From a virus (lineage: Duplodnaviria > Heunggongvirae > Uroviricota > Caudoviricetes): 26,367 nucleotides of DNA. Where the stretch lies: the IMG/VR virus record IMGVR_UViG_2698536401_000014; one strand, written 5' to 3'. The notes beneath the pieces are model-generated. The model had not been told where the DNA came from. It did no database searches and was given only the letters and a program-made list of their open reading frames with translations. This document shows, in pieces, positions 1 to 19,568 of the stretch (positions are counted from its first letter, which is position 1; each line of letters opens with the position of its first letter). A program made the translations under genes and the position numbers.

Positions 1-1017
1 TCACACTTCTAGCGTTGCGAGGGGGTTGAATCTCAGAGCCGTCTCAAGATGATCGGGTGCTAAATGGGCATAGCGCATAGTCATTTTTATATCGTGATGT
101 CCGAGGATTTTTTGCAAAGCAAGGATATTTCCACCCGACATCATGAAGTGCGCCGCAAACGTATGGCGCAGAACGTGTGTCAGTTGACCGCGAGGGAGCA
201 CGATAGACGTTTTTTCCATCACGGATAAAAATTGAAAATAGCAGTCTGTAAAGAAATTGAACCCATCAAGCGCCATGATCTCTTCGTAAAGCTCTTTACT
301 GATAGGGATGCTTCTGTTTTTCTTCCCCTTCGTTCTTACAAAGGTAATTCGGTATTTGGTCACTTGCGAGCGGGTAAGATTTATTGCTTCTCGCCAGCGT
401 GCGCCTGTGCTTAGGCATATCTTGACTACCAGTGCCAGAATTGGGTCCTGACGTTTGCAATCAGCCAGCAGTTCAACAATCTGCTCATGGGTAAGCCATG
501 CCATCTCTTTTTCTGCGATGGTGAATTTTCGCATGTTCTCCAGTGGGTTCGGATACGACCATTCGCCCAGGCGGGATAGTTCGCTAAAAACACTACTTAG
601 ATAGCTTTGCTCCAGGTTAATGGTGACCGGGCTTGCTCCTTTCTTCCATTTCTCGCTGAAGTAGATCTCACCTGTCAGGCGTTTATCTCGATAGTGGGCA
701 AACATTTTAGAGGTTAGATCAGTTGCAAGGGGATTGCCCAGAGCGTCAACCATCAACAGCAGTTTGTCATAGACATGCTGCCCAGCTGTCAGAGATTTAC
801 CATGTAGTTTGAACCATAGCTCAATCACGTCTTTCAATGTCCGACGATCCACTGATTCGCCCAGCCAGGGCTTTGCTTCGGTTTCTTCCATCGTGTGACG
901 CTCAAAAGCCAGAGCTTCGCCTTTGGTGGCGAATTGTTTACGCACACGACGTCCACTACGTCCGGCGGGGTAACATTCGCAAAGCCATTTTCCTGTGGTG
1001 AGTTTTCGTACTGCCAT
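1..1017 (-). CDS. int: Tyrosine integrase (P2/186 family)
   Basis: Minus-strand ORF with C-terminal catalytic motifs GARWREA, HVLRHTFA and MTMRYAHL (R..HxxR..Y pattern). N-terminus MAVRKLTTGKWLCECYP...RKQFATKGEALAFE resembles recalled phage 186 Int. Start placed at the internal ATG (1017); the six-frame ORF runs to 1095. Confidence 0.9.
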   Translation of the reverse strand: MAVRKLTTGKWLCECYPAGRSGRRVRKQFATKGEALAFERHTMEETEAKPWLGESVDRRTLKDVIELWFKLHGKSLTAGQHVYDKLLLMVDALGNPLATDLTSKMFAHYRDKRLTGEIYFSEKWKKGASPVTINLEQSYLSSVFSELSRLGEWSYPNPLENMRKFTIAEKEMAWLTHEQIVELLADCKRQDPILALVVKICLSTGARWREAINLTRSQVTKYRITFVRTKGKKNRSIPISKELYEEIMALDGFNFFTDCYFQFLSVMEKTSIVLPRGQLTHVLRHTFAAHFMMSGGNILALQKILGHHDIKMTMRYAHLAPDHLETALRFNPLATLEV

Positions 1018-1203
1018 AAAAAATGCCCTCCAGTAGAGAGCATTTTTACTGTATGTATAACCAGTGTCAATGTATGAAATCCTGCGACCATACATCTCAC
1101 TGAAACCATAATGAAGTTAGCTATTTTTTGCTATGTGAGTATGTGACTTTTGCGGTTAGCCTGCGGCTCATTGTTATATTAGGCGCAGATATAAAAGCAA
1201 AAT

Positions 1204-1410: not shown

Positions 1411-1980
1411 TTACCTAACGTACTTAATTGTTAAACTTATAATTTTCCCAATTATTTCAACATCTTCTATCTTGCACTCGAAGGCTCTGTTTCCACCCTC
1501 AACGAAGATTCTTCCACCGGGTAAACGAGTAATGTCACGGATCGTTATTTCGCCATCAATACTTATTACCCATTTACCATCACGTATATCATCAAATTCC
1601 TTATCACAAATAAATTCAGAATTATTATCTGTGATTACAAAAAGATTCTTGAATGCCGACGGTAGAAATTCTCTATCGAAAATATAAAAACCGTCTTCAC
1701 ACAAGGCCCCATCAGATAATACATATTTAGCAACTTCCATAGTATTTGTATTACCTGAAGTTTGCTTTGAACCATGCCCGGTTGTGAGCCAATTAAGCGA
1801 GGTGCCTGTTTCAAGGGCGCACTGGATTACCCATTCTGCTGGGAATGAGTCACGCATGTAGCGTGTGGCGAGTGTACTTTTAGAGATTCCTAAATGATCG
1901 CACAACGCCTGTCGAGTCTTGAATCCATAAGCTTCTACCATGCGCTCTATAGCGCCTCGTCCGCCTTTCTCCAAATTCAT
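1411..1980 (-). CDS. cI: Immunity repressor CI (186-type)
   Basis: N-terminal HTH-like region (EAYGF...ALETGTSLNWLTTG) and overall length resemble recalled phage 186 CI. Transcribed towards int and divergent from the apl/cII operon. Start at ATG 1980. Confidence 0.8.
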   Translation of the reverse strand: MNLEKGGRGAIERMVEAYGFKTRQALCDHLGISKSTLATRYMRDSFPAEWVIQCALETGTSLNWLTTGHGSKQTSGNTNTMEVAKYVLSDGALCEDGFYIFDREFLPSAFKNLFVITDNNSEFICDKEFDDIRDGKWVISIDGEITIRDITRLPGGRIFVEGGNRAFECKIEDVEIIGKIISLTIKYVR

Positions 1981-2105
1981 GGTCACTCCAAGTGAACTTT
2001 TATCTTGACGATTTCACTGTGCGATCGTATGTTTATGGTGTTCACAAAATACAAACGATCCGTATTCGTCCTGATTAATCATCATTAAACGAGGAATGTT
2101 GCATC
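1981..2105. promoter_or_regulatory. Lysis/lysogeny switch region between cI and the rightward early operon
   Basis: 125-bp intergenic region between divergent cI and apl-like genes. Candidate rightward promoter: TTGACG (2005-2010), 17-nt spacer, TATGTT (2028-2033). Contains ATCGTAT / ATCCGTAT direct repeats that may be operator half-sites. Confidence 0.4.
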
Positions 2106-3683: not shown

Positions 3684-3910
3684 TGGCTGATGCAATGGAT
3701 CTCGTACAGCAGCGCGTTGAAGAAGAACGCCAACGCCATATCCGTGCTGCCCGTGCCAAAACGCCGGGCGTGTCCCGCGTGCTTTGCGTTGAGTGTGAAG
3801 CGCCAATTCCGCCAGCACGCCGCCGTGCCATTCCTGGAGTGCAGCTTTGCATTACCTGCCAGGAAATCGCAGAGCTGAAAGGCAAACATTACAACGGAGG
3901 TGCTGTATGA
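3683..3910 (+). CDS. TraR/DksA-family C4 zinc-finger protein
   Basis: 75 aa with CVEC...(17)...CITC four-cysteine motif and an N-terminal coiled-coil-like segment. Translationally coupled upstream and downstream. Confidence 0.7.
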   Translation: MADAMDLVQQRVEEERQRHIRAARAKTPGVSRVLCVECEAPIPPARRRAIPGVQLCITCQEIAELKGKHYNGGAV

Positions 3911-4764
3911 GCACCATCCTGAAATGGGCGGGTAATAAAACCGCCATTATGTCCGAACTGAAAAAATACCTTCCTGCTGGCCCGCGACTGGTTGAACCTT
4001 TCGCGGGTTCTTGTGCTGTGATGATGGCGACGGATTACCCCAGCTATCTGGTTGCGGATATTAATCCTGATTTAATCAACCTCTATAAAAAGATTGCCGC
4101 TGATTGCGAAGCGTTTATATCTCGTGCCAAATTTTTATTTGAGGAAGCAAATAGTGAGCTGGCTTATTACAACATAAGACAGGAGTTTAATTACTCAACT
4201 GAAATTACTGATTTCATGAAGGCGATATATTTCCTGTATCTCAATCGTCACGGTTACCGTGGTTTATGTCGCTATAACAAGAGCGGGTATTTCAACATTC
4301 CCTACGGTAATTATAAAAATCCGTATTTCCCTGAAAAAGAAATTCGCGCATTTGCAGAGAAAGCCCAGCGGGCAACGTTTATCTGCGCGAGCTTTGATGA
4401 AACGCTGGCGATGCTGCAGGTGGGGGATGTGGTGTATTGCGATCCGCCGTATGACGGTACGTTTTCCGGCTATCACACTGATGGTTTCACTGAAGATGAC
4501 CAGTATCACCTGGCATCCATTCTTGAACATCGGTCATCAGAAGGACATCCGGTCATTGTTTCTAACAATGACACATCCCTGATTCGTTCGCTGTATCGCA
4601 ATTTTACTCACCACTATATCAAGGCAAAACGCAGCATCGGCGTGTCAGCTGGCGAGGGTAAATCTGCAACAGAAATCATTGCTGTTTCCGGGCCGAGCTG
4701 CTGGTTGGGATTTGATCCTTCGCGTGGCGTGGATAGTTCTGCCGTGTACGGAGTGTGTGTATGA
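3907..4764 (+). CDS. dam: DNA adenine methyltransferase (Dam-like, N6-MTase)
   Basis: [17 protein letters not shown] (SAM-binding FxGxG-like) and catalytic DPPY (CDPPYDG) motifs in Dam order. ATGA overlap with the preceding gene and with gene A. Confidence 0.85.
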
Positions 4765-7175
4765 GTCATGACGATATGAACAATTGCAGCGGCTTTAACG
4801 AGGCCGCCGCAGCATTTTCATGGAACGGCTCGAAAAAGGCCATTAACCCTTATCTGGACCCGGCGGAAGTTGCGCCGGAGTCTGCACTTTCAAACCTGAT
4901 CACTCTGTACGCTGCCGATAACGAGCAGGAACAACTGCGCCGCGAGGCACTGAGTGAGCAGGTCTGGGAGCGTTATTTCTTTAATGAATCCCGTGATCCT
5001 GTCCAGCGCGAAATGGAGCAGGATAAGCTCATTAGCCGGGCAAAGCTGGCGCATGAGCAGCAGCGTTTTAATCCGGACATGGTCATTCTGGCGGACGTAA
5101 ACGCCCAGCCTTCCCATATCAGCAAGCCGCTGATGCAACGTATTGAATACTTCAGCAGCCTGGGCAGGCCAAAGGCTTATTCCCGCTATTTGCGTGAGAC
5201 GATTAAGCCATGTCTGGAGCGACTGGATTGTGTACGTGACAGTCAGCTATCTGTTTCTTTCCGTTTTATGGCAAGCCATCAAGGGCTGGAGGGTCTGCTG
5301 ATCCTGCCTGAAATGAGCCAGGATCAGGTGAAACGCCTGTCCACCCTGGTAGCAGCGCATATGAGCATGTGTCTTGAGGACGCTTGTGGTGATTTGTATG
5401 CCACCGATGACGTTAAGCCAGAAGAAATCCGCAAGACATGGGAAAAGGTGGCAGCGGAAACCCTGCGTCTGGATGTTATCCCGCCTGCGTTTGAGAAACT
5501 TCGTCGGAAAAGAAACCGCCGCAAACCAGTGCCCTATGAACTCATCCCGGGTTCGCTGGCGCGTATGTTGTGTGCCGACTGGTGGTATCGGAAATTATGG
5601 AAGATGCGTTGCGAATGGCGGGAAGAGCAGTTGCGTGCTGTCTGCCTGGTCAGCAAAAAAGCATCCCCCTATGTCAGCTATGAAGCCGTGATGCATAAAC
5701 GTGAGCAGCGCCGTAAGTCGCGGGAGTTTTTTCGTTCTCATGAACTGGTGAACGAAGACGGCGACACGCTGGATATGGAAGATGTGGTAAACGCCAGCAG
5801 CAGCAACCCGGCGCATCGCCGCAATGAGATGATGGCCTGTGTTAAAGGTCTGGAGCTTATCGCGGAAATGCGCAGTGACTGTGCCGTTTTCTACACTATC
5901 ACCTGTCCGTCGCGTTTCCATTCCACGCTCAATAACGGCAGACCAAACCCGACCTGGACAAACGCGACGGTAAGACAAAGTAGCGATTATCTGGTCGGCA
6001 TGTTTGCTGCATTTCGTAAGGCTATGCATAAAGCCGAGTTGCGCTGGTATGGCGTGCGGGTAGCTGAGCCGCATCATGACGGTACTGTGCACTGGCATCT
6101 CATGTGTTTCATGCGTAAAAAAGACCGCGGCGCCATCACTGCATTACTGCGTAAGTTTGCCATCCGTGAAGACCGCGAGGAGCTGGGCAATAACACGGGA
6201 CCACGCTTTAAGTCTGAGCTGATAAACCCGCGCAAAGGTACGCCAACAAGCTATATCGCGAAATACATCAGTAAGAACATTGACGGGCGTGGTCTGGCTG
6301 GGGAGATCAGCAAGGAAACGGGTAAATCCCTGCGTGATAACGCTGAATACGTTAATGCCTGGGCGTCTCTGCATCGTGTTCAGCAATTCCGCTTCTTTGG
6401 CATTCCGGGGCGTCAGGCTTACCGTGAACTGCGATTGCTGGCTGGTCAGGCGGCAAGGCAACAGGGTGACAAAAAAGCAGGTGCGCCGGTACTGGATAAC
6501 CCGCGCCTTGATGCCATTCTGGCTGCTGCTGATGCTGGTTGTTTTGCCACCTATATCATGAAGCAGGGCGGCGTACTGGTTCCCCGTAAATATCACCTCA
6601 TCAGAACCGCTTATGAAATCAACGAAGAGCCAACCGCCTATGGCGATCACGGTATTCGTATTTATGGCATCTGGTCACCCATTGCAGAGGGCAAGATCTG
6701 CACTCATGCGGTGAAGTGGAAAATGGTTCGTAAGGCCGTTGACGTTCAGGAGGCGGCAGCCGACCAGGGCGCTTGCGCCCCTTGGACTCGTGGCAATAAC
6801 TGTCCCCTTGCTGAAAATTTGAACCAACAAGGGAAAGACAAATCAGCTGATGGGGATACCAGAACGGATATCACCCGCATGGATGACAAGGAGTTGCACG
6901 ATTACCTGCACAGTATGAGCAAAAAAGAGCGCCGGGAACTGGCAGCAAGGTTATGCTTGGTTAAACCGAAACGGCGTAAAGACTACAAACAGCGAATTAC
7001 AGACCATCAGCGACAGCAGCTCGTCTATGAGCTGAAGTCCAGAGGATTTGATGGTAGCGAGAAAGAGGTCGATTTACTCCTTCGCGGCGGCAGTATTCCG
7101 TCAGGAGCAGGCCTGCGTATCTTCTATCGGAACCAGCGTTTGCAGGAAGATGATAAGTGGCGGGATCTGTATTAA
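4761..7175 (+). CDS. A: Replication initiation endonuclease (P2 gpA-like rolling-circle initiator)
   Basis: 804 aa. HUH-type motif (VHWHLMCF) and paired active-site tyrosines (YIAKYISKN) typical of P2 A / phiX A-type Rep proteins. Position immediately before the SOS module and cargo region as in P2/186. Confidence 0.9.
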
Positions 7176-7267
7176 TTACGCGGGTTAACAATTCGTGCTC
7201 TTAATAATACCAGGCATATCAGGCTGATGAACGTAAAAAAACGTTTTACATCAGTAAGATTATTATA

Positions 7268-7287
7268 TACTGTGAATATAAACAGTG
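7268..7287. promoter_or_regulatory. LexA box (SOS operator)
   Basis: TACTGTGAATATAAACAGTG matches CTGT-N8-ACAG with an AT-rich spacer. Lies about 40 bp upstream of the 62-aa ORF and the DinI-like gene. Confidence 0.65.
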
Positions 7288-7327
7288 GTTATGTATACAG
7301 TATTGATTTGGTGTTATAGGAGGAAAG

Positions 7328-7516
7328 ATGCAGGACTATTTTTTGGAGTCTTTGAAGCTCCAGCGCATTGATTTTTTTCTTAAGCTTGTAGCGGCTAGTG
7401 AGTGTAGTGATGAAGAGAAGGGGCTGGCTTTGCAGTGGGTTTCTGAACTGACAGATGAACTCATGGCAAAAATCAGAAGCCACGAATACAACCGCTCAAT
7501 GGATGTCATCAGCTGA
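7328..7516 (+). CDS. Small SOS-operon protein (possible Tum-like antirepressor N-terminal component)
   Basis: 62-aa ORF with a strong AGGAGG ribosome-binding site 7 nt upstream of ATG 7328, directly downstream of the LexA box. Confidence 0.5.
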   Translation: MQDYFLESLKLQRIDFFLKLVAASECSDEEKGLALQWVSELTDELMAKIRSHEYNRSMDVIS

Positions 7517-7526
7517 GGTGACTTTT

Positions 7527-7760
7527 ATGCGCATTGAAATAATGATCGATAAAGAGCAGAAGATTAGCCAGTCTACCCTGGACGCCCTTGAATCCGAGCT
7601 TTACCGCAATCTGCGCCCCCTGTATCCCAAAACGGTAATTCGTATCCGCAAAGGTAGCTCTAACGGTGTGGAACTGACCGGACTGCAACTGGATGAAGAA
7701 AGAAAACAAGTGATGAAAATTATGCAGAAAGTGTGGGAAGACGACAGCTGGCTGCATTAA
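7527..7760 (+). CDS. DinI-family protein (Tum/DinI-like, SOS-regulated)
   Basis: 77 aa MRIEIMIDKEQKISQSTLDALESELYRNL...WEDDSWLH aligns by eye with DinI (MRIEVTIAK...ALAGEL...ETWESADDWF). GAGGTGA ribosome-binding site before ATG 7527. Confidence 0.75.
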   Translation: MRIEIMIDKEQKISQSTLDALESELYRNLRPLYPKTVIRIRKGSSNGVELTGLQLDEERKQVMKIMQKVWEDDSWLH

Positions 7761-7855
7761 GAAACGTTGCCTCCAGGAGGATTCATTCTGATGGGGGCTA
7801 GTTTGGGCAACGAGTGAAACGAGGCGTAAGGTGGGCGGGCATTTTGATAAGTGAT

Positions 7856-7881
7856 CGTCCGCTTTGTGCTAGAAGCGGTCG
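7856..7881. terminator. Weak hairpin between convergent DinI-like and HerA genes
   Basis: Imperfect inverted repeat CGTCCGCTT / AAGCGGTCG with an 8-nt loop. No clear U-tract. Confidence 0.25.
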
Positions 7882-7904
7882 TTACCGCTTCAGCACTTTG
7901 TTAA

Positions 7905-9764
7905 TTAGTGAGGGCTGGTTATTACGTAGTCGCTCTGGTCATCCTCTCCCAGCCTCTCAGGTATTAAATCGTTGAAGGAAATAGTATTACTCTTAGGTTT
8001 TTCTTCAATTGGAAGTTCAGCTACCCTTAATTTGAGCGGCATGGGGCAGACGATACCACTAAAAATACAGGTTCCTGTAGATAGCGTTGGAATCGACTCT
8101 TCAGTCAGTCGATCTATATATGATACTGATTTTTCAATTGCGTACAGATCATTCTGATTAATAAGGCGATGAATAAAATAATTGTGTGCTTGGGATATGA
8201 TTGTCGACGATATATCATTAGGGCGTTGACTGGAAATTGTGATAAAAACTCCAAATTTTCTCCCCTCCTTTATGATTTCCTCAAAAGTTTCCAGACGATA
8301 ATCTCTCCAACTTTCCGTTTCCCGAAAAGAAGTATTAGACAAAATATTGTGGGCTTCATCTATAATAATGTGCAGTGTAGATTTCTCTGTAGACATTTTC
8401 TTCATATTGTAAGCCCACTTGGCTATCAAAAGAGGAAGCGTTTTTTTCATGGTTATATTAACCATATTTAGATTCACAACCGTGAAATTATGTTCACCCC
8501 AAAAATCAGACTGTCCGGAAGTATCAAATATTTTGGCTATATCTTTACGGTTAGCACTCATTCTATTTATAACTGGTGAAATATGTTCAGGGTTAGACTT
8601 GTTAGATAAATATTCCTGTATTAACTGTAAGTACATAAAGTCCAACAGTTCTTCAATCATATCAGTTTTAAATGAAAAATTGCTTGCAAGACTGAATAGA
8701 TAGGAGCGCTCAGTATCAGCTTCTGTATTGAAAATACTACCACCCCTCAATTTCCATTTATATGCAGTTGAATGATACTCAAGATCAGATATAAGTTCTG
8801 GGTCATCTTTGAAAATTGGGCTAAGAAACTGATTTATAGTATCGCATTTGGGTTTGTCGCTACTAAAGAGATTTTGTCTGACTTTTTTCTTCAGGATATT
8901 GCGCATAAACTCAAGAGGATTATCAGCGGTCATCACTTTCTTGCGAAACTCAAGAACTCTCTTCAGGAAAGGTTTCTGTGTTTTGTCTGTTGCATCGGTT
9001 AGAACTGAGAGCATATCATGCTCAAGTAGAACCTCTCTGGGTAGAGGAAGTTTGTCACCATTTGCATGGTGCGTGTTGAGATTATAAACCGTCTTCTCGT
9101 CAGTAATACAGCGTGGGGCAGTATATTCTCCATTAAAGTCGAATAGAATAAATTTGCATCTTTCACTAAAGTGGTTGCCGAGAATATGTTTAACTTGGGC
9201 AATACCTGCTTTGTATAGCGCGGCTAGGGTATTTGACTTTCCGCTGCCTGTATTACCGAAAATGGCAATGTGGGAATTAATAAGACCATTGATTGGTAGT
9301 GCAATTTCAATATCTTCAAGATCTGTACGAGTAAACCTCATTACAGTTTCGTCTGCATCAGCTATCTGATGAACCGTCTGTATCATCTCTTCAGTTACCA
9401 CGAAGACTTCATTGCCGATGAGAGGTAGTTCACGCGAACCACCAATGAAGCAACCAGTACGATCAATGTAACCCGTAAGAGTAGAGGTCAGGTATCGCCG
9501 ATATCGCCAGGCATCACTGCCGCTCCCAGCGAGATGTTTTTCCTCAATGATTCGTTCCGCTTCAACCTTGCCGATCAGGCTCATGAAACCTTTTTTGATC
9601 TCAATGAAGCTACCCACTGATACATTTCTTAGAACTTTTCCCTGATAAAACAAGTCACTGAGATTTTTGTTTTTATCGACCAAAATTGTCACAGCGCGTC
9701 CAGAAACCTCACAGACTTCGCCTATACGGAGCACCGCTTCCTCTTCAGTAAAATGCCTGCTCAT
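7905..9764 (-). CDS. herA: HerA-family ATPase (SIR2-HerA defence system, HerA component)
   Basis: 619 aa. Walker A IAIFGNTGSGKSNT and Walker B HIIIDEAHN in HerA/FtsK-like arrangement. Start ATG overlaps the SIR2 stop (ATGA). GGAGG ribosome-binding site 6 nt upstream. Confidence 0.8.
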   Translation of the reverse strand: MSRHFTEEEAVLRIGEVCEVSGRAVTILVDKNKNLSDLFYQGKVLRNVSVGSFIEIKKGFMSLIGKVEAERIIEEKHLAGSGSDAWRYRRYLTSTLTGYIDRTGCFIGGSRELPLIGNEVFVVTEEMIQTVHQIADADETVMRFTRTDLEDIEIALPINGLINSHIAIFGNTGSGKSNTLAALYKAGIAQVKHILGNHFSERCKFILFDFNGEYTAPRCITDEKTVYNLNTHHANGDKLPLPREVLLEHDMLSVLTDATDKTQKPFLKRVLEFRKKVMTADNPLEFMRNILKKKVRQNLFSSDKPKCDTINQFLSPIFKDDPELISDLEYHSTAYKWKLRGGSIFNTEADTERSYLFSLASNFSFKTDMIEELLDFMYLQLIQEYLSNKSNPEHISPVINRMSANRKDIAKIFDTSGQSDFWGEHNFTVVNLNMVNITMKKTLPLLIAKWAYNMKKMSTEKSTLHIIIDEAHNILSNTSFRETESWRDYRLETFEEIIKEGRKFGVFITISSQRPNDISSTIISQAHNYFIHRLINQNDLYAIEKSVSYIDRLTEESIPTLSTGTCIFSGIVCPMPLKLRVAELPIEEKPKSNTISFNDLIPERLGEDDQSDYVITSPH

Positions 9765-10804
9765 CTCGAGCCTCCCAGATAGCACGTGATAATGTTATTC
9801 ATTACCGGAAAATCAACATTTCTTCCCGGCCGATAAATAATCTCTACGTTTGAGTAATCCCGAAATTTCTCCATAAAGCCGTTAACACTGGCCTCATCGA
9901 AAGCAAAGATCAGTAGCTTCAGGGTGGCGTTGCGCAGGGCTTTTTTAGTTATCGTTTCAATGTGCTCATCAGCAAACGAGAACCCAAAGACAATTAGTAA
10001 AGTTGCTTCTTTATCAAGCTCGTTGGAATAGGTTCTCAGTAAATCATAATAAACGTTCTGTAGTAGAGTCTCTTTAAACTTCTCCTTACGTGGAAGAATA
10101 AGTGCATGAGCAAGTACCCATCCTTTCATTTCGGCTAGGGTGGGAAAGTCAAGCGGCTTAATATCTGCAATACGATAAATGATTTTCCCTTTAGAATGCT
10201 GCCAAGAGAGCGAACCATGAAGTTTTATAAGGTTAACAGTAGGAAGCTCAACTTTATAATTATACAGATTTCCGGTTGCACTTACAGAATGATTAAAGCT
10301 ACCCGCATCAAATTCCGCATCTCCCAAAATACTTGCTCTTCTATTGAATCCATCATTAAAAAGAATATTGTTATTACGTGTGGCAGCTTCTTCGATGAAT
10401 AAATCATAATTAGTTGTAAAAACGTTAATACGCCTCGGAAGTAGGCCAGTTCGGCGGCGGGTCAGTATCTTTTCCAGTGAAGACATAAATGCATCATAAT
10501 TTGCACGGGTACATTCCAAATCGGTGATCACCTGAGGTGCGAAGGGGGTGCCGTAGCCGCGCTTCAACATGCATTCATGAGGTAGCCAAACATCTGACAA
10601 AAAGTCAGCTGCCATCCTTAAGTATTCATCTTCCTGTTCATCATTAATAAGCTGCTGAAGATCCGTTTCGATTGTCCCCAGTACTTTAATCGCTGGGAGG
10701 GATGCACCTGATCCGATGAGAAAGTTAATGTTAGCTGACTGAAATATCCGCTCTAAGTAGTCTCGGTCACTATCGTTACCGTAGTATGCGCGCTTGACTG
10801 CCAT
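9761..10804 (-). CDS. SIR2-domain protein (SIR2-HerA defence system, putative NADase effector)
   Basis: 347 aa. SIR2-like motifs FLIGSGAS (Rossmann GxGxS), FTTNYD and KLHGS (catalytic His region), as in defence-associated SIR2 domains. Directly upstream of and translationally coupled to HerA. Confidence 0.75.
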   Translation of the reverse strand: MAVKRAYYGNDSDRDYLERIFQSANINFLIGSGASLPAIKVLGTIETDLQQLINDEQEDEYLRMAADFLSDVWLPHECMLKRGYGTPFAPQVITDLECTRANYDAFMSSLEKILTRRRTGLLPRRINVFTTNYDLFIEEAATRNNNILFNDGFNRRASILGDAEFDAGSFNHSVSATGNLYNYKVELPTVNLIKLHGSLSWQHSKGKIIYRIADIKPLDFPTLAEMKGWVLAHALILPRKEKFKETLLQNVYYDLLRTYSNELDKEATLLIVFGFSFADEHIETITKKALRNATLKLLIFAFDEASVNGFMEKFRDYSNVEIIYRPGRNVDFPVMNNIITCYLGGSR

Positions 10805-11228
10805 CTTATCCTTCCACAAAACATTGGATTAGTCTGTAATTTATTTAATCTTAACGCCGAGCTCAATACTTTAACATCACTTCTTCTGGCGATTGCTATG
10901 AGCCCTTCTTGATAAAAAGTTCGATCGGGAAACTGATCCTTTATGCCACAAGTTTTCTAGCTATCCTCAAAAAATTGGTGTTAAAACTGTGCCAACAAAG
11001 TTGCAAGGTTCGCTTCTCGCTCACAGCGAACTTTCATCTTTGTAAACCCGTATGATTCGCTTTTCAGCAGTCATTCAGATACGGATTTACGCTTCCCTTG
11101 GCAGCGCATGACTATGACGCATGAGATCGCATGATCGTTTGAGGATCGTTTTTGCTGAAGTCAGCCAGAACTGGCGTGCTTTTGCTTATGTCATGCAGGT
11201 GCATGAAAACCACTACATAAAGCGGGCA

Positions 11229-11247
11229 GGCGTGGCGGGGATACGAG
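11229..11247. other. Putative cos (cohesive end) site of the P2/186-type genome
   Basis: GGCGTGGCGGGGATACGAG resembles the recalled P2/186 cohesive-end sequences (GGCGAGGCGGGGAAAGCAC / GGCGTGGCGGGGAAAGCAT) in the first 13 nt. Lies on the portal-distal side of Q in the expected orientation. Confidence 0.4.
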
Positions 11248-11327
11248 CGCGCGCAAGTGGCTGAGTGGGGGGGAAGGCAAAACAAGCACCTGCAAGATGA
11301 TGGCTGAATGGAAAAGTTTGTTGAAAA

Positions 11328-13406
11328 ATGCTAATTTTAGAAACAACATATAAGTTTTTATCCACCTCGTTAAGGCTTTCTATGAGCAGTTTCTTTTATA
11401 TCCAGCCTGATTTAAAAAATGATACAAATGCTGATTTTTTGAACTCTGTTGAAGAGTATGCAAATACTCATCAAATGCAGATTTATGCAATAATGAATCC
11501 CTTAGGGGAAAATAAATATAAATATAATAGAGACGATGTTCTTATTATATTAAGCCCAGGATACCAATTAGCGTTCGTTGCTTTTAGTGATGATGTTGAT
11601 GGTATACAAAATTTTATAGAGGATTTTATAGAGGATTTAGGTTCCTTATCAGATAAATACAATTATAAAGATACAATTGGTAGGCCTCGAGCGTGGAAAG
11701 ATAAACTTGTTACTGAGTGCTCATACGCTGATTTTAGTTTCGGTAATCTTGATAAGTTTTTTGATGAAATTAAAATTATTGATGGTGTTCTGGCTAAAAA
11801 GAGTGAGTTAATTATCTCTCTCTTAACAGGAAGTATCAATAATATTGATAAAGTTAAAGGCAATGTGCCAGATAATATACTTGACAAGGTTAAGCAAAAG
11901 ATAATTTTGTTTGATGGAGATCAGACAAGGTTTGTATACCAAAAATTTGATAAGAAAAAAGTTGTTATTCAAGGATTATCAGGTACTGGTAAGACTGAAC
12001 TATTGCTTCATAAGTTAAAGGAAATATATTTGGATAAGGAGAATTTAAATAGTAAAATAATGTTTACGTGCCATAATAAAATATTGGCAGACAATATGAG
12101 AAAGAGAATTCCAGAGTTTTTCAACTTTATGAAGGTCGAGCAGCAGATTAGCTGGAATGAAAGACTTTGGTGTGTTAATGCATGGGGTTCTCAATATGAC
12201 GGTAACTCTGGCGCATATAGATATATATGTGAATATTATGGATTAAGTTTCTATCGTTTTAGCTATGTGATGACTTTCGATAAAGTATGTAGAATTGCGT
12301 TGGATGAACTAAAAAAGTTGCCAAGCAATGAATTTAAGCATTGCTTTGACTTTATGTTAATAGATGAAAGTCAGGATTTCCCATCAAGCTTCATTGAGCT
12401 TTGCGAGCTGGTAACTCGTGATACTATTTATGTTGCTGGTGATATATTTCAAAGTATATTTGATACTAATATCTCTAATGAGATACAGCCAGACTTTCTT
12501 CTAAGTAAATGCTACCGAACAGATCCAAGGACATTGATGTTTGCTCATGGTTTAGGTATGGGGCTATTTGAAGAAGAACCATTAACTTGGTTAATGAATA
12601 ATGAATGGGAAGCCTGCGGTTATATAGTTGATGAATCGGTAAAAGGTAAATTAAGATTAAAGAGAGAGCCACTAAGAAGATTTGAAGATGTAACGGATGC
12701 AAAAATACATAGTGTGGAATTAATTAATTCCACATATGAAACTGAAGAAGAGAATATTTTGGGTATACTCCGTAAAATTAAGGAGGAGAATCCTACTGTT
12801 TTGGCTGATGATATTGGTATCATCTTTATTGATCAGGCTAAGACTATATTTAAAATCGCAGACAGACTTGAATTGAGCGTGCCTAGATTATTAGGGTGGA
12901 AGGTTAATAAGGCATATGAAACAAAAGAAAAAATTAAAGATACGTTATTCATAAGTAATAAAAACCATGTAAAAGGGTTGGAGTTTCCTTTTGTTATCTG
13001 TGTTACTCGTGATATTATCAAGAGCCATTCTTATCGAAATTCACTATATATGATGTTAACTCGTTCCTTTATTAAATCATATTTGCTTTTGGGGGATGGG
13101 AATAAATACTTACAGAATGAGATAGAAAAGGGGTTAGATGTTATTAATGAGCATGGTTATATGGATATTAACGTTCCACCGAGAGAAGTTATTTCAAAAA
13201 TAAGAACAACAATCAAATATGATGAGAAAAATATATCTCATTATGATTTGGTTACAAAGGTCTTCGATGACTTACAGATTGAGCCGATATTTCGTACATC
13301 CCTGTATAATACAGTAAAAACAATCATGCCTGATTCTTTTGATGTCGATAAAATTACTACTCTTGTTCGGTTCAACTATGAAATAATGCTTCAGGAGTCG
13401 AAGTGA
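11328..13406 (+). CDS. SF1 (UvrD-like / DExQD) helicase-family ATPase with unassigned ~200-aa N-terminal domain; candidate defence protein
   Basis: 692 aa. Walker A VIQGLSGTGKTELL; Walker B/motif II FMLIDESQDF; CYRT (UvrD motif IV-like); HVKGLEFPFVI (UvrD C-terminal motif). No TOPRIM or obvious nuclease motif. Alternative start at ATG 11382. Region is very AT-rich relative to the phage backbone. Confidence 0.8.
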   Translation: MLILETTYKFLSTSLRLSMSSFFYIQPDLKNDTNADFLNSVEEYANTHQMQIYAIMNPLGENKYKYNRDDVLIILSPGYQLAFVAFSDDVDGIQNFIEDFIEDLGSLSDKYNYKDTIGRPRAWKDKLVTECSYADFSFGNLDKFFDEIKIIDGVLAKKSELIISLLTGSINNIDKVKGNVPDNILDKVKQKIILFDGDQTRFVYQKFDKKKVVIQGLSGTGKTELLLHKLKEIYLDKENLNSKIMFTCHNKILADNMRKRIPEFFNFMKVEQQISWNERLWCVNAWGSQYDGNSGAYRYICEYYGLSFYRFSYVMTFDKVCRIALDELKKLPSNEFKHCFDFMLIDESQDFPSSFIELCELVTRDTIYVAGDIFQSIFDTNISNEIQPDFLLSKCYRTDPRTLMFAHGLGMGLFEEEPLTWLMNNEWEACGYIVDESVKGKLRLKREPLRRFEDVTDAKIHSVELINSTYETEEENILGILRKIKEENPTVLADDIGIIFIDQAKTIFKIADRLELSVPRLLGWKVNKAYETKEKIKDTLFISNKNHVKGLEFPFVICVTRDIIKSHSYRNSLYMMLTRSFIKSYLLLGDGNKYLQNEIEKGLDVINEHGYMDINVPPREVISKIRTTIKYDEKNISHYDLVTKVFDDLQIEPIFRTSLYNTVKTIMPDSFDVDKITTLVRFNYEIMLQESK

Positions 13407-14032
13407 ATAAAGAGTATTATTTTAGTCTGGAGCAGGCTCAGTGTGACTGGGCCTTTAAGCCAATACGAACAAAGAAAGATGTTATTGAAATATTGATGAG
13501 ATTAATCAAACTAATTTCTGTTTATACAGAACCATGCGAACAGAATGTGGTTGGGAGAGTGAAACTTCATATATCAAAGATGAGTCGAGTTTTCTTCTTT
13601 AGTGAAAATAAATATTATTCTCTTGCATTTCCTTTTTTTCTTGATGAAATTAATGGTCAGATTTTATTTAGTAGTCCAGAAATGGAGTGTATAGATAGTT
13701 TTGTAACATCAAAAGTCATTTCTTTTATTAATGACTCCTCTTATTTGAATAGTTCTTCTTGGGCCTTTTTTGAACCATTGTTAAATATTGAAGAACATCA
13801 AGGTATTTCCGGGTTTTGGCCTTTTCTTAGAATGTTGTTAACTTATGAGGATGGTTATATTAGATATGATGTCGATGAAGAAAGGGCTAATGGAAATCGT
13901 CATCCATTATATCATTTCGACGTCTTTTATTCTAATCCGCCAACGTTTAAAATTGGTTTGAATGCACATTATACAAATGATGAAATGATTGATTTTCTTG
14001 ATAGGGAAACTGATTGTCGTTATTTGAAATGA
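13403..14032 (+). CDS. Hypothetical 209-aa protein, partner of the helicase-like ATPase (candidate effector/sensor)
   Basis: GTG start overlaps the helicase stop (GTGA), indicating translational coupling. Same AT-rich composition. No transmembrane segment or recognisable catalytic motif. Confidence 0.65.
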   Translation: MNKEYYFSLEQAQCDWAFKPIRTKKDVIEILMRLIKLISVYTEPCEQNVVGRVKLHISKMSRVFFFSENKYYSLAFPFFLDEINGQILFSSPEMECIDSFVTSKVISFINDSSYLNSSSWAFFEPLLNIEEHQGISGFWPFLRMLLTYEDGYIRYDVDEERANGNRHPLYHFDVFYSNPPTFKIGLNAHYTNDEMIDFLDRETDCRYLK

Positions 14033-14033
14033 T

Positions 14034-14065
14034 AAAATTTAGCTGGCATTAGCCAGCTAAATTTT
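14034..14065. terminator. Bidirectional hairpin terminator between the cargo cassette and portal gene
   Basis: Perfect 14-bp inverted repeat AAAATTTAGCTGGC-ATTA-GCCAGCTAAATTTT with A/T runs on both sides, immediately after both convergent stop codons. Confidence 0.6.
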
Positions 14066-14068
14066 AAT

Positions 14069-15100
14069 TTACATCGTCAATGAGTAATTTTTGAATTGTA
14101 TTATTGTATTGTCTAACCAATTATTTATTTCTTCGAGTATTTTTTGTAATGGAATAAGCTCATTACGCACAAATACATTCGCCGCCTTCTCCACATCCCC
14201 AAACCCCCCAACATTATTCGGCATAATCCCCATCATCTGTGGCGGTACACGATGCGCCGCCATCATATCATCACGGCTGACGTTCTTGATGTTAAGAAAT
14301 TCATCCTTTGCCGCGACTTCTGATAACGGGATAATCTGAAGACCATCCTTTTTGCCGTTAGGCGAGTACATAAACAGGTTGCGGAAATTGCCTGGGCCTT
14401 TGGCGCTTTTCATCGCATTACGGAGGTTGTTCACATCTTCCTGGTTCTGCGCGGCGTCGGTCATGTACATGATGAAGCCAGCATGACTGCCGTTAATGTA
14501 ATACTTGCGGCGGAACAGCGTGGCGGATTCGTTGAGCAGGGCGGATGGAATGGCAGAAAGATAACCGGGCAGGCCGTAGATCTCCTGGTTGATGTCCGGT
14601 TCCATCAGATGAAAAATGCTGCCTTTCGTGAACTGATACGGCTGGGCTGTCATACCGTATTGCACAAACCAGTAGGTATCCAGGTCTAATCCGCGTCGGG
14701 TGTATTTTGCCAAAGCTGGCTCAAGGGCGATAACTTCACCGAAGCGGTTCGTGCGTTTCTCCAGGTAGGCGTTACCAAATACCAGATAGTCCTGCACAAA
14801 ACGTGAAAAAGCCTGCTGGCTGAGCAGCGGGTGAGGGATGTAGGTGCTGGTCAGAATGTTGCACTTTACTGCAATCGGTGAGCTGTGATGCACGGCGGCG
14901 CGAAAGGTGCGCGCCAGCCCGTCGAAACTCACTGGCGGCTCATACCAGCGATCTGTCTGTACGCATTCCACATAGTCCAGCAGTTCGCGGCGGTCCAGAA
15001 CAGGAACGGGATCACCGAAGCTGAATGCTTCGGCTGAAGTCTGGCTTTTATGCTGGATCTGGTTCGTCGACGCAGCGCGGTTCTTCTTACTCTTTCCCAT
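14069..15100 (-). CDS. Q: Portal protein (P2 gpQ-like)
   Basis: 343 aa (recalled P2 Q is 344 aa). Leftward, adjacent to and coupled (ATGA) with the terminase ATPase gene. Position and orientation match P2/186. Confidence 0.85.
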   Translation of the reverse strand: MGKSKKNRAASTNQIQHKSQTSAEAFSFGDPVPVLDRRELLDYVECVQTDRWYEPPVSFDGLARTFRAAVHHSSPIAVKCNILTSTYIPHPLLSQQAFSRFVQDYLVFGNAYLEKRTNRFGEVIALEPALAKYTRRGLDLDTYWFVQYGMTAQPYQFTKGSIFHLMEPDINQEIYGLPGYLSAIPSALLNESATLFRRKYYINGSHAGFIMYMTDAAQNQEDVNNLRNAMKSAKGPGNFRNLFMYSPNGKKDGLQIIPLSEVAAKDEFLNIKNVSRDDMMAAHRVPPQMMGIMPNNVGGFGDVEKAANVFVRNELIPLQKILEEINNWLDNTIIQFKNYSLTM

Positions 15101-16866
15101 CAAAAAATCTCCACAATATTACTGGTATTGGCGGACTCGCCTTGCAGTGGTTCGTTAAACAGTGCGTGCATTGTTGCCCAAGCCAGATCGGCGTGGCTGG
15201 CTTCTTCGCTGCGGCTGGCTTCATAGGTCGGGCGGTTGCCGCTGGCGGTGGTGGCACGACGGATTGCCATAAAGGACTGTGCTATGTCGGTGTGTCCGGC
15301 GTCAAACTCCAGACGGCGGTGGCTGATAATGTCGTAAGCCTTGAGTACCAGGGCGTTTTTAACGTTGGGGTTGTAGACAAACTCCCGGACGGCAGGAAAA
15401 AACGCTTTCACGTTCTCGTAAACCCCGTGACCAACGCCGGTTGAGTCGATACCGATATAGGTCACATTGTACTGTTCGGTCAGTTTTTTGATGGCGTCAG
15501 CCTGGGCGCGAAAGTCCATCCCGCGCCACTGGTGACGCTCAAGAATGCGAAACTTACCGCCCGGCACGGCTGGCGGTGCCAGCACCACGCATCCGGCACT
15601 GTCGCCGTTCTGCGTACCTTTTGCCGGGTCATAACCGATCCACACTTCGCGCCAGCCAAATGGGCGCAGCGCCAGTGCATGAAAGTCGGTCCAGACTTCC
15701 CAGCTGTCCACCATGCACGCCTGCAGCTCGCTGAGCGGGAACACGGACGCGAGATCGTCCACAAACTCGCACATCAGCAGGTTCTGGTATTCGTCCGGGC
15801 TGTACTCCATGCGCAACTGGTCAAGGTCGAACAGGTTACAGCCGCCGCGCACTGCATCTTCCACGGTGACTATCTGGCGGTATTGCCCGTCTGCGCACAG
15901 CAGGCCGGGGGCCAGATTGCTGTGGGACAGGTCGATGTCCACCTTGTCGGCTTTGTTGCGCCCACGGTTGAACAGCGCACCGGACCAGAACGGATAAGCA
16001 CTGTGTGTCAGGCTGGATGGCGTGGAAAAATAGGTCTGCCGCCATTTCTTGTGAATAGCCATACCGGAAGCCACTTTGCGCAGCTCCTGGAATTTCGGTA
16101 TCCAGAAATATTCATCCAGATACAGGTTGCCGTGGTAACTCTGAGCCGTGCGGGCATTGGTGCCGAGGAAGTAAAGCGTGGCCCCGTTAGGAAGCACCAT
16201 CGGATCGCCTTTCAGCTCCACCTCGACTTCTTTGGCGAAGTCGATGATGTACTGCTTAAAGACGTGAGCCTGTGCCTTACTGGCAGAAAGGAAAATCTGG
16301 TTACGTCCGGTAAGCAGGGCGTCAATCAGGGCTTCACGGGCAAAGTAAAAGGTCGCGCCGATCTGGCGTGACTTCAGCAGATTACGGATGCGGTTGGTTT
16401 TTCCTGCTTCCCACCAGTGGCGCTGGTAGTTGAACATGGAGGAATGGAAGATTTCTTCCAGCTTCTCAATCTGTTCATCGGTGAAAACATTCTTTTCCGG
16501 CTGACGGCGCGGCCCTTTGTTGCGGTTGGCGACGTTAGGGTTTAAGTCGGCTTCGTTGCCGCCATTGTTAAACTTGCCGATCCGCGCGTGGCGCTCCGAC
16601 TGGCGCGCCAGCAGGTCAATTTCTTTGAAATCTTTCCCTTCTTTGTGCTCCTTCATAATGAGCTGGCAGTAGCGGGCGGCGGTGGTGAGCTGCATCTGAT
16701 CCAGCGGCCCATAGTCACCCCACTTGTCGCGTTTTTTCCAGCTGTGAACGGTTGCAACTTTCTCGCCCAGCATTTCAGCAATGCGGGCTACGCGGTATCC
16801 CTGAAAGTACAGCAGCATGGCCTGCCGACGGGGATCGAGATCTGCGGGTGTCAGTGTGGTGTTCAT
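15100..16866 (-). CDS. P: Terminase large (ATPase) subunit (P2 gpP-like)
   Basis: 588 aa (recalled P2 P is about 590 aa). Divergent from the scaffold/capsid operon as in P2. Confidence 0.85.
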   Translation of the reverse strand: MNTTLTPADLDPRRQAMLLYFQGYRVARIAEMLGEKVATVHSWKKRDKWGDYGPLDQMQLTTAARYCQLIMKEHKEGKDFKEIDLLARQSERHARIGKFNNGGNEADLNPNVANRNKGPRRQPEKNVFTDEQIEKLEEIFHSSMFNYQRHWWEAGKTNRIRNLLKSRQIGATFYFAREALIDALLTGRNQIFLSASKAQAHVFKQYIIDFAKEVEVELKGDPMVLPNGATLYFLGTNARTAQSYHGNLYLDEYFWIPKFQELRKVASGMAIHKKWRQTYFSTPSSLTHSAYPFWSGALFNRGRNKADKVDIDLSHSNLAPGLLCADGQYRQIVTVEDAVRGGCNLFDLDQLRMEYSPDEYQNLLMCEFVDDLASVFPLSELQACMVDSWEVWTDFHALALRPFGWREVWIGYDPAKGTQNGDSAGCVVLAPPAVPGGKFRILERHQWRGMDFRAQADAIKKLTEQYNVTYIGIDSTGVGHGVYENVKAFFPAVREFVYNPNVKNALVLKAYDIISHRRLEFDAGHTDIAQSFMAIRRATTASGNRPTYEASRSEEASHADLAWATMHALFNEPLQGESANTSNIVEIF

Positions 16867-18917: not shown

Positions 18918-19568
18918 ATGAGCCTGAGTCCCGCACGGCAGCATCGCCTGCGCGTTCAGGCTGAACAGGCCGCCCGTGAGGGCGGCAGTGTTCGCCACGC
19001 GTCGGGCTATGACCTGATGCTGCTGCAACTGGCGGAAGACCGCCGCCGTCTCAAGGGCGTTCAGTCCACGGTGAAAAAAGCGGAAATCAAGGTGGAGCTG
19101 CTGCCGAAATATGCCGCCTGGGCGGAGGGCGTCCTGGCTGCCGGAGGCGCTCAACAGGATGACGTGCTGATGTACGTGATGCTGTGGCGCATTGATGCCG
19201 GAGATTATGCCGGGGCGCTGGAGATTGGGCGTCATGCCCTGCGTCATGGCTGGGTGATGCCGCTGGGTAACCGCAACGTGCAGACCGTGCTGGCAGAGGA
19301 AATGGCAGATGCCGCGCAGAGCGCAATGCTTGCCGCCACCGGCTTTGATGCCGATCTGTTGCTGCAGACGCTGGAGCTGACAGACGGTCTGGATATGCCG
19401 GACCAGTCACGGGCGCGTCTGCATAAAGCGATTGGCGCGGTCCTGAGTGAAAGCAATCCGGCTTCCGCCCTTAATCATCTCAACCATGCGTTACAGCTCG
19501 ATCCCCGCTGTGGCGTGAAAAAAGACAAACAGCAGCTGGAGCGCAGACTGCGCAATGACAGCCGCTGA
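18918..19568 (+). CDS. M: Terminase small/endonuclease subunit (P2 gpM-like)
   Basis: 216 aa, immediately after the capsid gene, in conserved O-N-M-L order. Confidence 0.8.
   Translation: MSLSPARQHRLRVQAEQAAREGGSVRHASGYDLMLLQLAEDRRRLKGVQSTVKKAEIKVELLPKYAAWAEGVLAAGGAQQDDVLMYVMLWRIDAGDYAGALEIGRHALRHGWVMPLGNRNVQTVLAEEMADAAQSAMLAATGFDADLLLQTLELTDGLDMPDQSRARLHKAIGAVLSESNPASALNHLNHALQLDPRCGVKKDKQQLERRLRNDSR

Follow-up and report, generated by a model that had tools for sequence, protein, structure and literature searches.

The window, the 26.4-kb stretch of viral DNA analysed here, is, judged by its genes, an integrated prophage of the P2 family (Peduoviridae), of the Fels-2/186-like kind, and its gene order fits this assignment. 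It covers part of the prophage and does not include both ends. The listing of open reading frames (ORFs), combined with family scans, gives the order gpA, DinI, cargo, cos, cargo, Q, P, O, N, M and L, with Q and P on the minus strand. Specifically, an integrase gene (1-1095, minus strand) and a gene for a 186-type CI repressor (1411-1986, minus strand) are followed by genes for a Dam methylase (3847-4764), the replication protein gpA (4755-7175) and, just upstream of the right-arm cargo, a DinI/Tum-like protein (7455-7760). On the far side of the cargo lie the portal gene (gpQ homologue; 14069-15103, minus strand; Pfam Phage_portal), which shares 99.3% DNA identity with an annotated E. coli prophage portal gene, and the gene for the large terminase subunit (gpP homologue; 15100-16866, minus strand; Pfam Terminase_6N, Terminase_6C and Terminase_5, full length). 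The genes for the scaffold gpO, the capsid gpN, the small terminase subunit (gpM homologue; 18918-19568, plus strand; Pfam Phage_term_smal, E 2e-40, full length), the head completion protein gpL and a lysozyme come next.

Full-length family matches are found for the integrase, CI, gpA, the portal, both terminase subunits, the scaffold, the capsid, the head completion protein and the lysozyme. The element that carries the putative cos site also encodes a gpP-type large and a gpM-type small terminase subunit; the gpP homologue is expected to be the enzyme that cuts cos, and the gpM homologue the subunit that recognizes it. The combination of a 186-type CI (1411-1986) with a DinI/Tum-like gene (7455-7760) suggests 186-style SOS inducibility, not P2-style non-inducibility. 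The cargo also differs from its surroundings in base composition, with a G+C content of 29-35% in the helicase island and 33-46% in SIR2-HerA against about 53% in the adjacent core genes.

Cargo cassettes and the interval between them

The right-arm cargo is a two-gene cassette on the minus strand. Its first gene encodes a SIR2-family protein (9761-10804; PADLOC SIR2 PDLC04080, E 6e-211 over the full profile; Pfam SIR2_2), with AAGGA ahead of the ATG at 10804, and its second a HerA-type ATPase (7905-9764; PADLOC HerA PDLC04097, E 6e-267; Pfam DUF87/HerA), whose start at 9764, in a 4-nt overlap with the SIR2 stop, follows the PGAP calls in 99.9% identical copies. The two genes are adjacent, co-oriented and matched by PADLOC over their full length, and the PADLOC models thereby predict the recognized anti-phage system SIR2-HerA as part of the right-arm cargo. 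The NCBIfam equivalog scores fall below their cut-offs (SIR2_antiphage 99.8 against 500; HerA_antiphage 138.6 against 800), so that the window carries a SIR2-HerA subtype other than those that these models describe. The cassette is present in 18 complete E. coli genomes. Its homology block (7882-11035) has, furthermore, a copy of 91-92% identity outside phages, in a chromosomal island near ypjA (locus L099, 5001-8153), which indicates that the cassette moves between P2-like prophages and chromosomal islands. The island copy is accompanied by an IS3 transposase and a restriction endonuclease gene.

The portal-side cargo, on the plus strand, consists of an STM2767-family SF1 helicase (674 aa; 11382-13406; NCBIfam NF053713, 988.8 bits against a cut-off of 550; UvrD/AAA_19) and an STM2766-family helicase-associated protein (209 aa; 13403-14032; NCBIfam NF053714, 212 bits against a cut-off of 70), the latter with no Pfam or PADLOC family match. 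Against defence models the pair gives no full-length match and one partial hit (E 3.5e-28), and a literature search for functional studies of STM2767 returned Salmonella typing papers only. The pair is a plausible candidate defence system, separate from SIR2-HerA. Among 5426 complete E. coli genomes it is found in only 5, each time in the portal-side slot and as the same unit of 2.8 kb, and all five match the whole of 11259-14068 at 99.6-99.8% identity. A perfect palindrome of 34 nt (14033-14066; AAAATTTAGCTGGC ATTA GCCAGCTAAATTTT) lies where the cargo and portal genes converge and folds as DNA into a hairpin of -16.1 kcal/mol (z = -7.3; 0 of 200 shuffles as good). This hairpin is probably a bidirectional terminator carried by the cargo cassette, and the 36 bp between the stop of the helicase partner and the portal stop hold nothing else.

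The two cassettes diverge from a non-coding interval that the first-pass annotation had placed at 10805-11327. Its left edge stands, and its right edge needs to be moved. The longest ORF would start the helicase at 11328; the alignment to the NCBIfam profile begins at residue 2 of the 674-aa product, and in identical copies PGAP annotates a helicase gene of 2025 nt, so that 11382 is most likely the true start. With this start, the interval would extend to 11381 and measure 577 bp rather than 523 bp.

The same annotation had seen in this interval one 500-bp divergent control region for both cargo operons, a description that its mosaic structure and the lack of a convincing sigma-70 promoter do not sustain. 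Specifically, the interval is composed of a 231-bp SIR2-HerA 5' leader (10805-11035, minus strand), a 67-bp linker (11036-11102) that lies outside both the cassette block and the phage-conserved block, the 154-bp cos core, and a 123-bp 5' leader of the helicase cassette (11259-11381, plus strand). Each leader travels with its cassette, that of SIR2-HerA even outside phages, and each is the presumed promoter site. No correctly oriented sigma-70-like site of at least 9/12 emerged from a tool scan or a relaxed script, consensus scans which weak or activator-dependent promoters could escape. The best SIR2-side match reaches only 8/12 (TTGAGC-17-TAAATT, 10866 to 10838), and its -10 element is not conserved in the 91-92% identical ypjA island copy; on the plus strand of 11259-11381, no promoter-like site of at least 8/12 is present. 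An Rfam search of 10500-11700 gave sub-threshold chance hits only. Transcription that diverges from cos is nonetheless plausible from the orientation of the genes and from the precedent of P2, in whose record the start of the old-tin mRNA, which is directed away from cos, is placed 149-151 bp from the site. It would come from two unrelated, cassette-borne putative promoters, not from one shared region.

The probable cos core and its cohesive end

Of the whole interval, the cos core (11103-11256) alone is conserved in phage records. Within it lies the 19-mer GGCGTGGCGGGGATACGAG (11229-11247, plus strand), which occurs once in the window and remains the sole match in all 26.4 kb when up to three mismatches are allowed, with 0 matches expected from 100 shuffles. 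The cos sites of P2, 186 and P4 have experimentally defined 19-nt 5' cohesive ends. In the public records, the cohesive end of 186 (positions 1-19) reads GGCGTGGCGGGGAAAGCAT and that of P2 (positions 1-19) reads GGCGAGGCGGGGAAAGCAC; the 19-mer of the window agrees with the former at 15/19 and with the latter at 14/19 positions, so that the resemblance to P2/186 cohesive ends reported in the first-pass annotation is confirmed, and it agrees with P4 at 14/19. The cohesive end of PSP3 is annotated as the same as that of 186. In the Felsduovirus phages Fels-2, SEN8, SopEPhi and RE-2010, the 19-mer is identical at all 19 positions. The record of the Salmonella phage SEN8 opens with it, under the label 'putative cos site', and closes with the base equivalent to window position 11228; the SEN8 genome announcement likewise names the identical 19-mer as cos, an assignment made by annotation.

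The 19-mer is thus a G+C-rich sequence of the right length that begins with GGCG(A/T)GGCGGGGA, as in P2, 186 and P4, and a staggered cut at 11229-11247 would leave it as 5' overhangs. These nick positions are taken over from P2 and 186. The 3' end of the 19-mer differs from the experimentally mapped ends (positions 14-19 are TACGAG in the window, AAGCAT in 186 and AAGCAC in P2), so that the exact right-hand nick is an extrapolation. The searchable literature yielded no physical end-mapping of a Fels-2-type cos or of this 19-mer, and the available portions of papers citing Ziermann and Calendar (1990) give no experimental cos boundaries.

The homology extends well beyond the overhang. When the right and left ends of P2, 186 and the satellite P4 are joined and all sequences are anchored on the first G of the overhang, the window, SEN8, Fels-2, 186, P2 and P4 align without gaps over 11103-11256 (154 bp, about -125 to +26). 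Alignment to the P2 and 186 genome ends, proposed earlier as a check, therefore returns an ungapped match that goes well past the 19-mer. Invariant elements on the right-arm side are three (T)GCAT motifs near -123 to -100, TGCAT.AAAACC at -31 to -20 and AAG.GGGC at -9 to -2; from the cut onward, they are the GGCG.GGCGGGGA start and GCGCGC at +21 to +26. Past +28, the six aligned sequences have nothing in common.

The right-arm part of the core (-126 to -1; 11103-11228, plus strand) is the presumed binding region of the terminase. Without gaps, it is 87-90% identical to Fels-2 and SEN8, a value that the -125 to -1 core also shows with SopEPhi and RE-2010, and 48-57% identical to P2, 186 and P4. 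It holds GCATG/CATGC motifs at 11106, 11119, 11129, 11192 and 11201 (-123, -110, -100, -37 and -28), and these five motifs in 126 bp form the densest cluster in the window, a count that 0.12% of 126-bp windows reach. At the portal-side edge of the core (11248-11256, plus strand) lies the GCGCGC box (11249-11254), which is kept in all aligned phages and in the satellite, and it is at +25 to +28 that related prophages all diverge.

The core recurs in 91 phage records, isolated virions included, among them Fels-2, SopEPhi, RE-2010, SEN8 and induced Klebsiella and Yersinia phages, and it is present in 1277 of 5426 complete E. coli genomes. The site lies between gpA/DinI and a portal-terminase pair reading away from cos, and it is like the cos of P2, 186 and P4 also in its upstream motifs, its register, its GCGCGC box and its position relative to the replication arm and the portal-terminase genes. 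The in-register homology from -125 to +26 with P2, 186, P4, Fels-2 and SEN8 bears out the earlier suggestion that this sequence is a P2-family cos. Taken together, 11103-11256 is very probably the cos packaging site of a Fels-2/186-like P2-family prophage, with a cargo slot on either side.

Two further features of the core can be described on their own account. Terminator-like hairpins that a scan marked at 11160-11175 (plus strand) and 11225-11210 (minus strand) were rejected as functional elements of this copy, with z values of -0.79 and +1.65 against shuffles. At about -70 on the plus strand, Fels-2 and a Yersinia phage carry what looks like a terminator, a clean G+C stem of 9 bp with TTTTGC after it; its equivalent in the window (11160-11175) has decayed to 5-6 bp and is degenerate and not significant.

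Cargo exchange on either side of cos

The gene content agrees with the first-pass view that cos splits the cargo into a right-arm island (SIR2-HerA) and a portal-side island (the helicase pair). Comparison with related P2-like prophages, also put forward there, reveals that both sides of cos vary and that they are exchanged independently. Specifically, positions 7001-11258 of the window match a prophage of E. coli 2c3 at 99.9% identity, in which a HipA-domain and HIRAN pair occupies the portal side, and positions 11103-15200 match one of E. coli N9 at 99.3% identity, in which the right-arm side is free of cargo. The segment common to the 2c3-like and N9-like halves is the cos core, and polymorphisms place the crossover in the window at -34 to +25. 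In five E. coli genomes that share the SIR2-HerA cassette, identity to the window runs through cos and breaks off completely at +25 to +28.

The partners of each cassette vary accordingly. SIR2-HerA is found with four portal-side cargos (HipA-HIRAN, a 557-aa protein, an AIPR protein and a 469-aa protein), and in three genomes with the helicase cassette the opposite side is empty or holds a 111-aa gene. The two cassettes occur together in none of the complete E. coli genomes, of which 18 carry SIR2-HerA and 5 the helicase cassette. Across near-identical prophages, with flanks of 99-99.9% identity, the cargo takes five states on the portal side and three on the right-arm side. These sequence comparisons support a model in which the right-arm and portal-side slots assort independently. 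In addition, a stretch of about 35 bp within 11029-11066, just left of the cos core, recurs nearly unchanged in E. coli FORC_081 (locus L097), where the right-arm cargo is a different one; it may have been left behind by an earlier exchange or mark a second preferred junction.

This arrangement is common. A portal-protein scan with one genome per species returned 80 loci, and in 47 of them it was possible to locate gpA, the portal and a single cos motif. Among the resulting 48 loci (the window and 47 other species), with cargo defined as an ORF of at least 100 aa, cargo flanks cos on both sides in 19, is confined to the portal side in 19 and to the right-arm side in 6, and is absent from 4; for the 47 other species, the figures are 18/47 for both sides and 37/47 for the portal side. 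Across loci, cos and the portal stop are between 167 and 3511 bp apart. In P2, 186 and PSP3, cos lies 168-179 bp from the portal stop, unlike in the window, where 2.8 kb of cargo separates the two. Two-sided cargo around cos is the norm in the Fels-2-like clade, and the layout of P2, 186 and PSP3 is a minority state. Fels-2 and SEN8, like the window, have non-core genes on either side of cos. The genes themselves differ: Fels-2 encodes hypothetical proteins of 243 and 565 aa, and SEN8 a DNA-binding protein on one side and a hypothetical protein with an HNH endonuclease on the other, where the window has SIR2-HerA and STM2767/2766.

The region has been noted before as a site of defence genes. 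Rousset et al. 2022 (PMC9122126) describe the cos-proximal gpA-gpQ region as a hotspot of anti-phage systems, and Egorov et al. 2024 (10.1101/2024.10.15.618418) and Moura de Sousa et al. 2026 (PMC13586616) treat gpA-portal as one hotspot. The window resembles the published hotspot in its interval, in the rapid turnover between near-identical prophages and in the kind of cargo, which includes SIR2-type systems. The published hotspot is single and bounded by protein-coding flanks, whereas the present data resolve two slots that are parted by the 154-bp cos core, with edges at about -125 and +26; a splitting of the gpA-gpQ hotspot at cos was not found in the available text of the three papers. 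As such, the cos-adjacent hotspot is already known, and the two-slot picture is a modest refinement, not a new phenomenon.

The satellite P4 offers a further comparison. Its cargo (gop, beta, cII; the cos-int hotspot) sets in directly past +26, on the side of cos that corresponds to the portal-side slot of the window; P4 has that one slot only, and the opposite side of its cos core abuts psu. The old-tin genes of P2 lie on the other side of cos, beyond -125. According to Moura de Sousa et al. (PMC13586616), P4 and P2 exchange defence genes almost never.

Packaging model, alternatives and meaning

What is established about P2-family packaging, taken with the layout of the window, leads to a model in which, after induction and the ensuing excision, replication and circularization, the terminase formed by gpM and gpP would recognize cos, probably via the GCATG-rich stretch of about 125 bp on the right-arm side. 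Recognition is placed there because this stretch is conserved between helper phages and a satellite that borrows their terminase. Staggered nicks around GGCGTGGCGGGGATACGAG would subsequently generate 19-nt 5' cohesive ends. In the virion DNA, the helicase cassette would then form the left terminal 2.8 kb, beside the portal gene, and SIR2-HerA the right terminal 3.3 kb, and each cassette, having brought its own leader, would be transcribed away from cos. If the sequence requirement of cos stops at about -125 and +26, foreign DNA would be tolerated just outside these limits, and two slots with sharp borders would result.

Several other explanations of the interval have to be weighed against this model. 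The short distance between cos and the portal stop in P2, 186 and PSP3 might place the real cos beside the portal stop also in the window, with the motif at 11229 as a chance or duplicated look-alike. The probability of such an arrangement is practically negligible: no second match exists in the window at three mismatches, the hairpin alone fills the 36 bp between the cargo and portal stops, and the motif at 11229 comes with about 150 bp of in-register flanking homology. Moreover, a portal-side slot with an ORF of at least 100 aa is present in 38 of the 48 loci, the window included, at distances of up to 3.5 kb, and Fels-2 and SEN8 are laid out in the same way. A cos adjoining the portal stop, which the first-pass annotation had itself named as the outcome that would overturn its reading, is thereby ruled out by sequence. 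Coding for a protein might likewise account for the conservation of the block, as a 47-aa ORF (11121-11264, plus strand) spans the cos cut. It is called a 'hypothetical protein' in several RefSeq/GenBank records, and its equivalents are annotated in RefSeq E. coli genomes and in a Yersinia phage (8322-8465 in the E. coli locus L094, and 6016-6159 in L007). This explanation is very improbable: cleavage of cos would cut the ORF in two, the conservation into P2, 186 and P4 takes the form of short in-register DNA motifs and not of a reading frame, and most records have nothing annotated there. The ORF is probably an annotation artefact of conserved cos DNA.

It is also unlikely that 10805-11381 is mainly one shared bidirectional promoter/operator region that co-regulates both cargo operons. 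The two operons do diverge from it, and the P2 old-tin transcript sets a precedent for reading away from a point close to cos; against this stand the scans described above, which found neither a correctly oriented sigma-70-like site of at least 9/12 nor an Rfam match, and the different evolutionary histories of the two leaders, which the 154-bp cos core keeps apart. The cassettes are furthermore found apart in each of the complete E. coli genomes examined, and co-regulation therefore cannot be an evolved property. A decidedly unlikely reading accepts the site as a true cos homologue and holds that the prophage is defective, so that cos would be a relic that is no longer cut or packaged. Some related E. 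coli copies have indeed decayed, with a truncated terminase or a portal pseudogene in loci L094 and L096, and the window shows part of the prophage only, but its head and packaging, integrase, CI, gpA and lysozyme genes are full-length matches, and its cos core has every motif that is invariant across P2, 186, P4 and Fels-2.

A cos core flanked by two cargo slots remains the preferred reading. As to the turnover of the slots, one possibility, which we hold tentatively and consider doubtful, is that the core itself is a hinge that drives cargo turnover, with exchange beginning at the cut cohesive ends or in the 60-bp invariant stretch around them. Such a hinge would explain both the onset of portal-side cargo at +25 to +28 and the crossover of the window at -34 to +25. 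If it exists, left-end and right-end cargo would reassort like segments, and the portal-side slot would correspond in position to the hotspot of the P4 satellite.

The current understanding of P2-like phages is not changed by these results. The location of cos fixes the ends of the packaged genome, and with cos at 11229-11247 both cassettes would lie inside the virion at opposite termini and would both be transferred with the phage. Genes separated by cos should not be taken to form one system, and the helicase pair is therefore flagged apart from SIR2-HerA. More generally, the division of the gpA-portal hotspot into two slots with predictable edges at about -125 and +26 may aid the automated delimitation of cargo and guilt-by-association searches for defence genes.
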